Below the pieces are notes generated by a model. That model searched no databases and was not told the DNA's origin. It was given only the letters and a program-made list of their open reading frames with translations. Shown piece after piece: positions 32,161-58,003 of a stretch of 64,000 nucleotides of DNA; within the stretch, counting starts at the first letter, position 1; each line of letters opens with the position of its first letter. The stretch is from positions 1-64,000 of IMG/VR virus record IMGVR_UViG_3300007276_000035; one strand, 5' to 3'. The position numbers were made by a program, and so were the translations under genes. The DNA is from a virus.

Positions 32161-32417
32161 TGCTAACAGTATATACTAAAAACAATTGCGGATTTTGCGT
32201 AATGCTTAAAAATTTGCTTACAAAGAAAGGCTATGACTTCACTGAAGTTAATATAGAAGAAGACGAAGATGCGTACACATTCGTTATTGAAGAAGGCCAT
32301 AAATCTATGCCACAAATTTACGAGGACGGTTCTGTTTTTGTAGAAGGTGGCTTTGAGGGTATGCGAGCATACTTAGCTGAACAAGAAATTAACAACACAA
32401 ACTTAGGAACACTATAA
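32160..32417 (+). CDS. glutaredoxin/NrdH-like redoxin
   Basis: VYTKNNCGFC, SMPQI, GGF. Confidence 0.9.
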   Translation: MLTVYTKNNCGFCVMLKNLLTKKGYDFTEVNIEEDEDAYTFVIEEGHKSMPQIYEDGSVFVEGGFEGMRAYLAEQEINNTNLGTL

Positions 32418-32752
32418 TGTTTTATCATTTAAATGACTTACTTGGAAAAGTAGTTACAATCAAAATAGGAAACGGACAAGAATTTATAGCAACTCTTAGA
32501 GGGATAGATGATCCTTTATCAGTGCTCACACTTAACAAACCAAAGTCAATAATACTCGGAGGCAACAGTCCGGAGACTCAGCAAGTTTTTATGCTACCTT
32601 ACATGCTTACAGCAGACCAGGATGAGATTTTTATGAGTCTAAGTCAGGTATTAAGTGTAGTAAAAACTTTAGAAGAAACTGCTGAAGAATATAAATTACT
32701 GCTACTTCAGGAAGAGTCTGAAGATGTTGACGTAGAAGTAGTCGATAAATAA
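32417..32752 (+). CDS. Sm/LSm-like fold protein
   Basis: LLGKVVTIKIGNGQEFIATLRGID resembles the Sm1 motif; similar to the protein at 57698. Confidence 0.55.
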   Translation: MFYHLNDLLGKVVTIKIGNGQEFIATLRGIDDPLSVLTLNKPKSIILGGNSPETQQVFMLPYMLTADQDEIFMSLSQVLSVVKTLEETAEEYKLLLLQEESEDVDVEVVDK

Positions 32753-33032: not shown

Positions 33033-33118
33033 AACTTGCCTTAGGACCAATATAAGGCGGTGGGTTTACCAGTTCCCTCGTTGATTGATTCGCTACCATG
33101 ACATGTAAATACTGGCTT
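33033..33118 (+). ncRNA. candidate structured RNA with two arms antisense to 23S rRNA 1921-1937
   Basis: CCTTAGGACC 33039-33048 and TTCGCTACC 33089-33097; hairpin 33058-33080 whose loop CCAGT can pair with ACTGG 33111-33115. Confidence 0.5.
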
Positions 33119-33400: not shown

Positions 33401-33465
33401 GACTTTGTTTTCAGATAGTAAGTAAATAAGTATAACACACTATTACACACTAAAGGAATTATTTA

Positions 33466-35281: not shown

Positions 35282-35363
35282 TAGTAGTGTAACGCAGTGA
35301 TAAATATTGTCATGCGCCTATCACTGTAAAATAGATTCGACTAGGTTGCATGTAGAGTGTAAG

Positions 35364-50542: not shown

Positions 50543-50572
50543 ATTACTTATTTATCTACTTTACACGTATTT

Positions 50573-55711: not shown

Positions 55712-56632
55712 ATGATTAGAGACTTAGTTGTAATAGGAACAAGTATGGCCAGCGGCGTTGGCCAGGGCCTTGAGTCTCGCACAGCAGAAGATGGTGCCGT
55801 TGTTAGTTGGGTTACTGCCTTAGCTAATTTATTAGAGGTTGACAACGTTTGGAATCATAGCTTACCTGGAAAGCCGATTGGGTTAGTTCACGCAGATTTT
55901 GTTGAATTCCATAGGCAATATATTAAAAGATACGGAACTAGCGAAAATCTCACAATAATACTTGAATACAGTATGCCTAGCTATAGACATTGGGATCCTG
56001 TTGCTGCATCTAGATCCGACTGTATGGGTATGAATATAATCCCACTTGCGCAGTTTAGTCCCATCATGGATTGGGAAAAAGCAAGATCATCAGCATATTA
56101 TCGAGATGCTAAATTTCTACAGACTGAATTTTACGAAAGGCGCGAGATAGACATGTTAGCAGTATCACGTAACGCTGGCGCTGACATGTATCAAAAAGTA
56201 ACAGACGATGTTATTTTGCCTGACGAGGTTTTAGATTTTGAAGCTCGTGCATTAGAATGGTTTAGACCTACAGAAGAAAATAAATTACGTTACATGAAAT
56301 ATGCCTTCGACGAACTAGGTTCTGCCCAGCGACTGTGTAACCATTGGAATACAGCTTACTTGCAAACTTGGGCAGGAGGATTTAATGACGATTACAAACG
56401 CGGAGTTGATCGATTTCTAAAGCCGTTGTCACAAGGCAACCCACGACTAATACCAATGCAAGAGTTTACGTCTATTACTGCTACTAACGACTGGAGTGAT
56501 AAAGTGTGGCGTAATCATCCAGACGAAGTCGGACACAAACGAATCGCTGAATATTTTTACAATTACATTAAAGAACATAAGATATACGAAAGACCTAACA
56601 ATAATTTATATAGAGGATATACTAGTGAGTAA
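55712..56632 (+). CDS. SGNH-hydrolase-like protein
   Basis: VIGTSMASG, NHSLPG, HPDEVGHKRIA. Confidence 0.6.
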   Translation: MIRDLVVIGTSMASGVGQGLESRTAEDGAVVSWVTALANLLEVDNVWNHSLPGKPIGLVHADFVEFHRQYIKRYGTSENLTIILEYSMPSYRHWDPVAASRSDCMGMNIIPLAQFSPIMDWEKARSSAYYRDAKFLQTEFYERREIDMLAVSRNAGADMYQKVTDDVILPDEVLDFEARALEWFRPTEENKLRYMKYAFDELGSAQRLCNHWNTAYLQTWAGGFNDDYKRGVDRFLKPLSQGNPRLIPMQEFTSITATNDWSDKVWRNHPDEVGHKRIAEYFYNYIKEHKIYERPNNNLYRGYTSE

Positions 56633-57455
56633 TTTGCTTTGCATGGCAGTGTCAAAAATTATTGGCGATTCAGCTGAATATAATAAAAATTTAGACAATC
56701 AAACATTATTTAATGCATACCAGGACATGTGTAATATTGTTTTACATAGCGCAGAAACATTCATCCAGGAAGACTTTGACATTGTGGTTTTTGGAGATGA
56801 TGTTGAAAGTTATCAAGAAATATTTCATAAAAACTTTGCTAGCGTTTATGAAGCATGGGATATTGATAGCCCTAATAACGTGTTGTTTTTGGACTGCGAC
56901 ACATTAATAATTAGCCCCACAGAAGTATTCGGTAAGTATGATCGCTTTCAATTATTTAATTATACCGACCCTAAATCGCTGCAAGGACCAGACGCTAAAA
57001 ACAAATACAACTTAGCGTTTGATCATTACTTTAATGCAGGGGTTAGGTATTATCCTGACACCATGACTAAAGAAGTATGGGACCTAGGTTGGAGCTATGC
57101 ATCGGATTGGGATTACGATATTTGGGGTACAGAACAAATTATATTTAATGAAATGATGTTCTCACAAGACCGCGATCATACTACCTGGTTAAAGCCAGAA
57201 ATGAATTACCAAATTCCAGGCGTTGCATTTAATAGCTTGGGTGCTTATGGTAAAGTACATCAACTTGATAGACTGAACGGGTGTAATGTCCAGGATGCTA
57301 ACATTTTACATTTACATGGAACACGCGGTGCCTTGAACACATTGTTACAACAATGGGTTATTTGGAAACAAATAACTAACGAGGAGTTTGAGTTTGATAA
57401 TTTTGTCGTGGTTAAAGATAGCGATGGTAATGCTACAAACTTGCAACAAAAATAA
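56625..57455 (+). CDS. GT-A glycosyltransferase, GT8-like (start moved to GTG 56625)
   Basis: LFLDCDT, FNAGV, EQIIFN, ILHLHG. Confidence 0.7.
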   Translation: MSNLLCMAVSKIIGDSAEYNKNLDNQTLFNAYQDMCNIVLHSAETFIQEDFDIVVFGDDVESYQEIFHKNFASVYEAWDIDSPNNVLFLDCDTLIISPTEVFGKYDRFQLFNYTDPKSLQGPDAKNKYNLAFDHYFNAGVRYYPDTMTKEVWDLGWSYASDWDYDIWGTEQIIFNEMMFSQDRDHTTWLKPEMNYQIPGVAFNSLGAYGKVHQLDRLNGCNVQDANILHLHGTRGALNTLLQQWVIWKQITNEEFEFDNFVVVKDSDGNATNLQQK

Positions 57456-57481
57456 TTTTTTAAATAATGGCGCCACTAAGT

Positions 57482-57582
57482 AAAAAACTGGACAGTCTAG
57501 TTGCAGTACTCTGCGTCTAAATAGCCTATACTAAGAGGGAGGCACACAATATTACTTGTTAGACTGAACATCAACTGTCCGT
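57482..57582 (-). ncRNA. candidate ~95-100 nt multi-stem small RNA
   Basis: AGTAAATA upstream (57595-57588); terminal stem GGACAGU/ACUGUCC; nested stems; U6 tail. Confidence 0.55.
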
Positions 57583-57644
57583 ACTAATATTTACTAAAAA
57601 ATACAAAAATCTATTCTAAACGGTGGATTTTAAGTCAAAACAGC

Positions 57645-57673
57645 TTGACCGACCAATTAAAGTGTAGTATAAT
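57645..57673 (+). promoter_or_regulatory. sigma70-like promoter
   Basis: TTGACC-17-TATAAT. Confidence 0.75.
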
Positions 57674-57697: not shown

Positions 57698-58003
57698 ATG
57701 CTAATCGATAAACCAATTGCAAAGAACGATGTAGTAACAATCAAACTATTAAGTGGCGAAGAACTTATTGCGACTTATGTTAACGAAGAAAATGGTAAGT
57801 ATAATGTAGACAAGCCAGTGCAACTAGTTAGTGTCCCAGGAGACAATGGCCAAATGGGAGTGCAGTTCCATCCTTACTTGGTTACTAGTGCAAGCACTTC
57901 GTTTGGCATAAACACTGCATTAGTTGTTACACTATGTCCTAGCTCTGATCAAGTAGCTAAAATGTATTTAGAACAAACTACTAGTATACAACTCGCAACA
58001 TAA
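57698..58003 (+). CDS. Sm/LSm-like fold protein
   Basis: DVVTIKLLSGEELIAT...KP...PY; similar to the protein at 32417. Confidence 0.55.
   Translation: MLIDKPIAKNDVVTIKLLSGEELIATYVNEENGKYNVDKPVQLVSVPGDNGQMGVQFHPYLVTSASTSFGINTALVVTLCPSSDQVAKMYLEQTTSIQLAT

Follow-up and report, generated by a model that had tools for sequence, protein, structure and literature searches.

The window considered here, a stretch of 64,000 nt, is taken from an IMG/VR virus fragment of 101,655 bp that was judged to be 28% complete; at that degree of completeness, the phage would have a genome of roughly 360 kb. The record carries genes for ribonucleotide reductase, a DnaB-like helicase and virion proteins. Our subject is a gap of 242 nt between two plus-strand genes, at 56496-57455 and 57698-58003. 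Read on the minus strand, the gap presents in order the motif AGTAAATA, the heptamer GGACAGU, an 84-nt interior, ACUGUCC, a run of six U residues and a weak hairpin centred on GGCGCC (Table 1). The initial annotation had described a stand-alone late small RNA with six nested stems, transcribed away from an Sm-like gene; its coordinates, motifs and stems were all verified on the minus strand, where GGACAGU...ACUGUCC encloses 91 nt. The open reading frame upstream of the gap has a GTG start inside the preceding gene (55712-56632); relatives of its product align from about residue 47, and the true start is probably an ATG near 56634.

Table 1. Features in and beside the 242-nt gap, in window coordinates.
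Feature	Position	Strand	Evidence
Late-type promoter core AGTAAATA	57588..57595 (TAAATA 57593-57588)	minus	sequence; 66/66 upstream regions
Structured RNA core, 91 nt, closed by P1	57490..57580	minus	covariance model R1: 91.3 bits, E = 5e-16
P1, 5' strand GGACAGU	57574..57580	minus	partner 57490-57496; covariation
P1, 3' strand ACUGUCC	57490..57496	minus	covariation
P1b, 5' strand GUU	57567..57569	minus	partner AAC 57500-57502; covariation
P1b, 3' strand AAC	57500..57502	minus	covariation
Conserved unpaired motif GUCUAAC	57558..57564	minus	near-invariant across the family
P3 hairpin: GCCU, loop CCCUCUUAGUAU, AGGC	57524..57543 (GCCU 57543-57540, AGGC 57527-57524)	minus	covariation; 12-nt loop
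Conserved junction CUAUUUAG, family consensus CUAnAUAG	57517..57524	minus	family alignment
P4 hairpin GCAG-AGUA-CUGC	57503..57514	minus	17 distinct stems in the family
U6 run directly 3' of P1	57482..57487	minus	seen in the sequence; some clades only
GGCGCC-centred palindromic hairpin, likely a two-way terminator	57465..57478	no strand assigned	about 60/72 loci
Sigma-70-like promoter of the Sm-like gene, TTGACC-17-TATAAT	57645..57673	plus	11/12 consensus positions
Sm-like paralogue, 101 aa	57698..58003	plus	profile, AlphaFold model, Foldseek

The first relatives of the element came from homologues of the upstream gene, which led to four syntenic contigs carrying the same element. A pattern taken from the conserved hairpin found 49 viral loci, and a less strict pattern detected 85 loci in metagenomes, some of them in TARA and other marine records. 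With two chance matches removed, the collection stands at 136 loci of viral or metagenome origin, among which 72 cores are distinct. A covariance model (R1) built on helices P1 and P3 recovers 74 members with scores of 68-109 bits, one per contig, and finds no second copy of the RNA in the window. DNA of the window itself was found in 19 DNA sequencing runs, mostly freshwater metagenomes, and in no RNA run. Mean pairwise identity in the RNA core is 70%, with 22 invariant columns, and the adjoining proteins average 47%. The element in the gap is a genuine small RNA gene, folded and strongly conserved, that belongs to giant aquatic phages known from uncultured material, and even with the protein link set aside the family is a well-supported addition to the structured RNAs of uncultured phages.

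The loop pattern has no match in 185,579 prokaryote species (one genome each), and among cultured phages blastn finds no match for the 2-kb region or for a typical member. At E values up to 10, nothing among the 4227 models of Rfam 15 overlaps the element in the window, and for two other members, L018 and L014, the same collection gives chance matches only, 10-30 bits below 35-110-bit gathering scores. An ARAGORN search of the window detects neither tRNA nor tmRNA genes, in keeping with the remark in the initial annotation that tRNA hallmarks are lacking. The loose likeness to Y RNA that was also remarked on is not borne out, as there is no match to the Y RNA models of Rfam 15 in the window, L018 or L014, and the 101-kb record, about 28% of the genome, has no match to a Ro/TROVE gene (PF05731). 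We found no description of the RNA in the literature on Sm-like proteins, phages and small RNAs. Rfam includes orphan structured RNAs of phages and aquatic metagenomes. Like these, the present RNA comes from uncultured aquatic phage sequence only, is supported by covariation and has no known function; the difference is that it matches none of the Rfam 15 models.

Folded by minimum free energy, the window's copy of the element reaches -25.7 kcal/mol and shows the nested stems of the first reading. Set against shuffled sequences, as the initial annotation had suggested, the stability of this single fold is not significant (z = -1.62, with 13 of 200 shuffles folding equally well or better; z = -1.48 for the plus-strand fold). 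It is the comparison across relatives that makes the element more than a chance fold. In alignment A4, which holds 74 members aligned by the covariance model, the six pairs of P1 and the four pairs of P3 are formed in 97.7% of cells, five of these pairs change on both sides, and the observed score is reached in none of 500 shuffles. When the 3' partners are slid along the alignment, pairing falls to 22-45%. Four predicted helices, namely P1, P1b, P3 and P4, are kept by compensating changes.

Helix P1 occurs in relatives as GAACAG/CUGUUC, GAUGG/CCGUC and GUGACAGA/UCUGUCAC; its seventh pair is U-A, A-U or C-G, and in many clades the helix extends to GUUGG...CCAAC with one base bulged. The pair counts in P1b are GC 19 and UA 16, UA 56 and GC 4, and UA 52 and AU 3, and the helix appears in relatives as AUUU/AAAU, AUUG/CAAU, UGUG/CACA or GUUU/AAAC. 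The P3 stem is paired in 100% of cases and two of its pairs covary (CG/AU/UA and GC/CG), giving the forms GCGU/ACGC, GCCU/AGGC, GAGU/ACUC and GUGU/ACAC around the 12-nt loop CCCUCUUAGNAU. This loop is C/U-rich and near-invariant, with the rare variants CCCUCGUAG in L080 and L090 and CAAUCUUAG in L201. The members concerned (L201:982-1087, L080:12697-12801 and L090:12179-12282) are natural variants and possible guides for mutational tests. A P4 stem of at least 4 bp can be formed in 93% of 69 distinct sequences, compared with 10% of shuffles, and takes the form of 17 different stems whose sequence and register differ between clades.

Of the six stems first proposed, four are thus conserved (P1, GUU/AAC, GCCU/AGGC and GCAG-AGUA-CUGC), whereas GUCUAA/UUAGAC and ACAA/UUGU are confined to the window; where the window has UUUAGAC, relatives read UAUAG(U/A). 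The strands GUCUAACA and CUAnAUAG are conserved as sequence and not as pairing partners, and the AU-rich stretch between GUCUAACA and P3 varies in both length and sequence. Covariation shows that P1 and P1b together close a junction from which three elements branch, namely a variable arm rich in A and U, the P3 hairpin of 4 bp, and the variable hairpin P4. P3 displays the C/U-rich 12-nt loop, and GUCUAACA and CUAnAUAG, both invariant, lie unpaired at the junction.

Several other pairings were considered. The GGAC/GUCU pairing chosen by RNAalifold breaks in the GAACAG clade, where the compensating change lies in the 3' strand of P1, and a CAGUC/GACUG pairing lacks covariation in the AUCUG clade. 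In many sequences, an AU-rich, cloverleaf-like P2 can be drawn between the stretches before and after GUCUAAC, in competition with P1b. The GUCUAAC motif has no flanking stem that would make it an anticodon loop, and GGA loops of the CsrA type are confined to the P4 of some clades.

The 101-residue product of the gene on the other side of the promoter region has no Pfam match of its own. The profile of its family, however, matches PDB entry 3BY7 (E = 8.2e-8, at about 18% identity), and 17 of 32 family members match PF16243 weakly, all of them below the cut-off. An AlphaFold model of the protein (pLDDT 82.6) shows five strands followed by a C-terminal helix, and Foldseek places 3by7 first at 1.5e-5, followed by dozens of Sm/LSm chains. 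By profile and by predicted structure, then, the neighbour has an Sm/LSm fold. The view that the gap holds a discrete, structured non-coding element divergent from an Sm-like gene is upheld on both counts, by the conserved family on one side and by the profile and Foldseek matches on the other.

In at least 66 of the 72 loci, the RNA has an Sm-like homologue immediately downstream, encoded on the strand opposite to its own; the gene on the other side of the RNA is variable or missing. The link does not hold in reverse: the RNA is present in only 6 of the best 80 of more than 337 Sm-like loci in IMG/VR. Most of the other Sm-like genes among those 80 stand directly behind a glutaredoxin-like gene with no gap, which points to a second, RNA-less context for phage Sm-like proteins; at L202-L270, the gene in front usually encodes a glutaredoxin-like protein with a CPxC motif. 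The first Sm-like paralogue of the window, at 32417-32752, comes after the ribonucleotide reductase genes. Distant homologues occur in the T4-type phages Melnitz, S-SCSM1 and Atu_ph07, in each case inside an operon and without a comparable upstream gap, and the covariance model finds nothing in these three genomes.

A quick maximum-likelihood tree places 33 of the 34 Sm-like proteins linked to the RNA in a single subtree (SH-aLRT 87), and the RNA-linkage label requires 4 changes, compared with 28 in shuffles. Since the alignment is short and its rows are related, this shows joint inheritance and not interaction, and linkage and shared clade could both reflect common descent alone. The best explanation of the material as a whole, and one on which we are evenly divided, is a stand-alone structured small RNA gene on the minus strand that works with the adjoining Sm-like paralogue. 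Its strongest rival accepts the RNA as real and stand-alone and makes it independent of the protein, whether by titrating a host factor as a decoy or sponge, by binding a ligand or by acting as a ribozyme, with the linkage as inherited synteny. The junction strands and the loop are indeed conserved far beyond the needs of base pairing, as would be the case if the RNA had a tertiary fold or bound a protein or a ligand; a U-rich linker resembling an Sm site follows P1 only in some clades; and most Sm-like genes have no RNA. Against this, the Sm-like gene keeps its place beside the RNA in at least 66 of 72 loci with an upstream flanking gene that is variable or absent, the RNA-linked proteins form nearly one clade, and no known ribozyme or riboswitch family is matched at E values up to 10. 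We consider independence from the protein unlikely.

The strand on which the element is read bears on all of this, and the flanking signals are relevant to it. The motif GATAAATA lies 0-45 nt before start codons on the plus strand at 270, 11302, 14055, 14569, 21626, 24382, 35301 and 38659, and before start codons on the minus strand at 50549 and 53344. It is probably the late promoter consensus of the phage, in which case some genes, such as that at 35301, would be leaderless. On the coding strand of the window, 17 of 49 TAAATA sites lie within the 6% of sequence that is non-coding, a strong enrichment, and the intergenic sites precede genes that include two matches to PHROG 'virion structural protein' families. 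At the RNA, all 66 distinct upstream regions carry TAAATA on the minus strand, with 6-8 nt separating it from the first G of GGACAG. The late promoter of T4-type phages is an octamer resembling TATAAATA, placed about 6-7 nt ahead of the start, and has no -35 element. In clades where P1 is extended, the helix therefore begins near the expected start of a T4-type late transcript. Of the late-type motif in the initial annotation, TAAATA is borne out by its invariant placement, but it follows T or G in every one of the 66 regions and never the A of the GATAAATA motif that the protein genes of the phage mostly have. Given this systematic difference between the two kinds of promoter, the late timing of the RNA is something that we infer. 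Two further intergenic TAAATA sites on the minus strand, at 33113-33118 and 33455-33460, lie in the gap after the first Sm-like paralogue; as in the RNA promoter, each is preceded by T, and the covariance model finds no homologue of the RNA in that gap.

Beyond the other end of the RNA, about 60 of the 72 loci have a GC-centred palindrome 7-22 nt after P1. On the RNA side of the palindrome, a T-rich tail (at least 5 of 9 bases) is present in 27 loci, weak in others and absent in the L014 clade. Lying between RNA and upstream gene, the palindrome is nearly always perfect, with GGCGCC at its centre and rarely GGGCCC, TGGCCA, CCGGCCGG or TCCGGA; a run of A often borders one side of it and a run of T the other, and it looks like a two-way terminator. 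The U6 tail proposed at the outset is there in the window, directly after P1, but such a tail is a feature of some clades only, most relatives having the separate GC-rich hairpin instead.

On the promoter side, TTGAC and phased A-tracts recur upstream of the Sm-like gene in relatives. The A-tracts (57596-57673 in the window, and their counterparts in relatives) are phased at about 10-14 bp and lead into TTGAC(A/C)-17-TATAAT; on the minus strand, they show up as a conserved run of five T residues about 15 nt before the TAAATA of the RNA. The divergent promoters of the RNA and the Sm-like gene may share bent DNA.

The main alternative on this point makes the plus strand functional: a folded RNA in transcripts that read through from the upstream gene, or that come from a promoter farther upstream that has escaped notice, might act in cis on the Sm-like gene or autoregulate it, with UAUUUA as the tail to which the protein binds. 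The plus strand carries nearly all of the neighbouring genes; in that direction, the loop reads AAGAGGGA, and UAUUUA, elsewhere on the plus strand, resembles a site for Sm or Hfq rich in A and U. Whole-sequence folding energy is slightly better on the plus strand on average, the minus strand being the more stable in only 19 of 72 sequences, and P4 is neutral as to strand. A few members (L016 and L169) show A-C in P1 when read on the minus strand. The location fits poorly, however: read in the plus direction, the element comes after a terminator hairpin and 60-100 nt before the sigma-70-type promoter that the Sm-like gene has of its own, there is no conserved plus promoter upstream, and the plus-strand TAAATA at 57461 is specific to the window. 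Across P1 and P3, the minus reading gives 30 G-U and 3 A-C pairs, a count inflated by an alignment bulge, and G-U pairs favour the minus strand in several independent clades. In 44 sequences the minus strand gives the better P1 duplex, compared with 24 for the plus strand. In L004, the L011 clade, L174, L161 and L188, the terminator has its U-tail on the RNA side only, so that it would serve minus transcripts alone. We regard a functional plus strand as quite unlikely, and we hold with good confidence that the minus strand is the functional one.

A role as DNA and not as RNA, whether as part of a promoter or an origin or as inverted repeats to which a regulator binds, is highly improbable: GGACAGTC and GACTGTCC are conserved as sequence, and phased A/T tracts and two back-to-back promoters lie around the element, but P3, P1b and P4 stay complementary while their sequence changes and G-U pairs are tolerated, as expected of RNA and not of duplex DNA sites, and the 12-nt P3 loop is asymmetric and invariant.

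For the minus-strand RNA gene working with its Sm-like neighbour, the following course of events can be proposed. Transcription would start about 6 nt after TAAATA, at the first base of the closing stem, and the transcript is predicted to be about 100 nt long if it ends at the U run that follows P1, or about 125 nt long if it ends at the two-way terminator. The Sm-like protein would be made from its sigma-70-type promoter, presumably early. The linkage of the two genes suggests that the RNA probably belongs to a phage Sm-like/RNA particle, in which it would act with the ring-forming paralogue next door. The exposed loop and the invariant strands might then bind a conserved partner, most plausibly a purine-rich RNA sequence resembling a ribosome-binding site, and late in infection this might alter translation or the stability of RNA.

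Candidate targets were sought for this last, speculative part. The complement of the loop reads CUAAGAGGG, so that the C/U-rich loop might pair with purine-rich sites. Neither the P3 loop nor GUCUAACA has an excess of complementary sites in the 659 kb of contigs that carry members: the loop has 49, compared with about 141 expected, and GUCUAACA has 39, compared with 39 expected. The 101-kb record contains no extended site complementary to the loop. With Escherichia coli 16S, 23S and 5S rRNA, which may not represent the host, the longest complementarity is no better than that of shuffled segments. A more ambitious proposal, which we put forward tentatively and think somewhat unlikely, is that giant aquatic phages carry an Sm-class ribonucleoprotein of their own, a snRNP-like counterpart composed of a dedicated ring paralogue and a cognate RNA, and that the invariant loop of this RNA grips a site conserved universally in host or phage RNA, for instance in purine-rich regions where translation begins, and in this way reprograms late translation or RNA decay.

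In layout, the RNA most closely resembles the small RNAs associated with Sm proteins and Hfq. The shared features are a short gene that stands alone, with a probable promoter and a putative hairpin-plus-U terminator, conserved unpaired stretches on a folded scaffold, and an Sm-fold protein, which is present here by linkage only. C/U-rich loops of this kind in Hfq/Sm-dependent small RNAs often pair with ribosome-binding sites. Unlike in those systems, the Sm-fold protein is encoded by the phage, beside the RNA, and forms a separate clade. The RNA also has a multi-branch junction and about 22 invariant positions, more than a typical seed plus terminator, and its core looks more like a tertiary-folded junction than like that simpler design.

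3BY7 is an Sm-like pentameric protein of putative cyanophage origin (Das et al. 2009, cited in PMC3710371 and PMC12152347), and the texts consulted name no RNA partner for it. The neighbour protein shares its profile and its fold of five strands and a C-terminal helix, but most relatives stand gapless behind the glutaredoxin-like gene, whereas the paralogue described here has the RNA. The HSURs of Herpesvirus saimiri (mentioned in PMC3710371) are viral small RNAs that recruit host Sm proteins. They have in common with the phage RNA that a virus-encoded small RNA may assemble with an Sm-fold ring; they differ in belonging to a eukaryotic virus, in using host Sm proteins and in having a canonical AUUUUUG site, whereas here both parts would be encoded by the phage and a U-rich site is not conserved across the RNA family. 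T4-type phages also encode proteins with an LSm-like fold that are implicated in mRNA stability, but these belong to another protein family and act on mRNA leaders, and no dedicated small RNA has been described for them.

Sm-like proteins of marine T4-type phages have been known since the 3BY7 structure of 2008, and the literature searched yielded neither an RNA partner nor a function for them. Here, an RNA family outside Rfam is accompanied by a phage-borne Sm-fold gene that is adjacent to it and specific to one clade. Tightly linked to that Sm-like clade in marine and freshwater giant phages, the RNA is a testable candidate partner for the protein. If the pairing holds, it would mean that a phage can supply the RNA as well as the protein of an Sm-type machine, and the RNA would offer a handle on the role of the widespread phage Sm-like genes.
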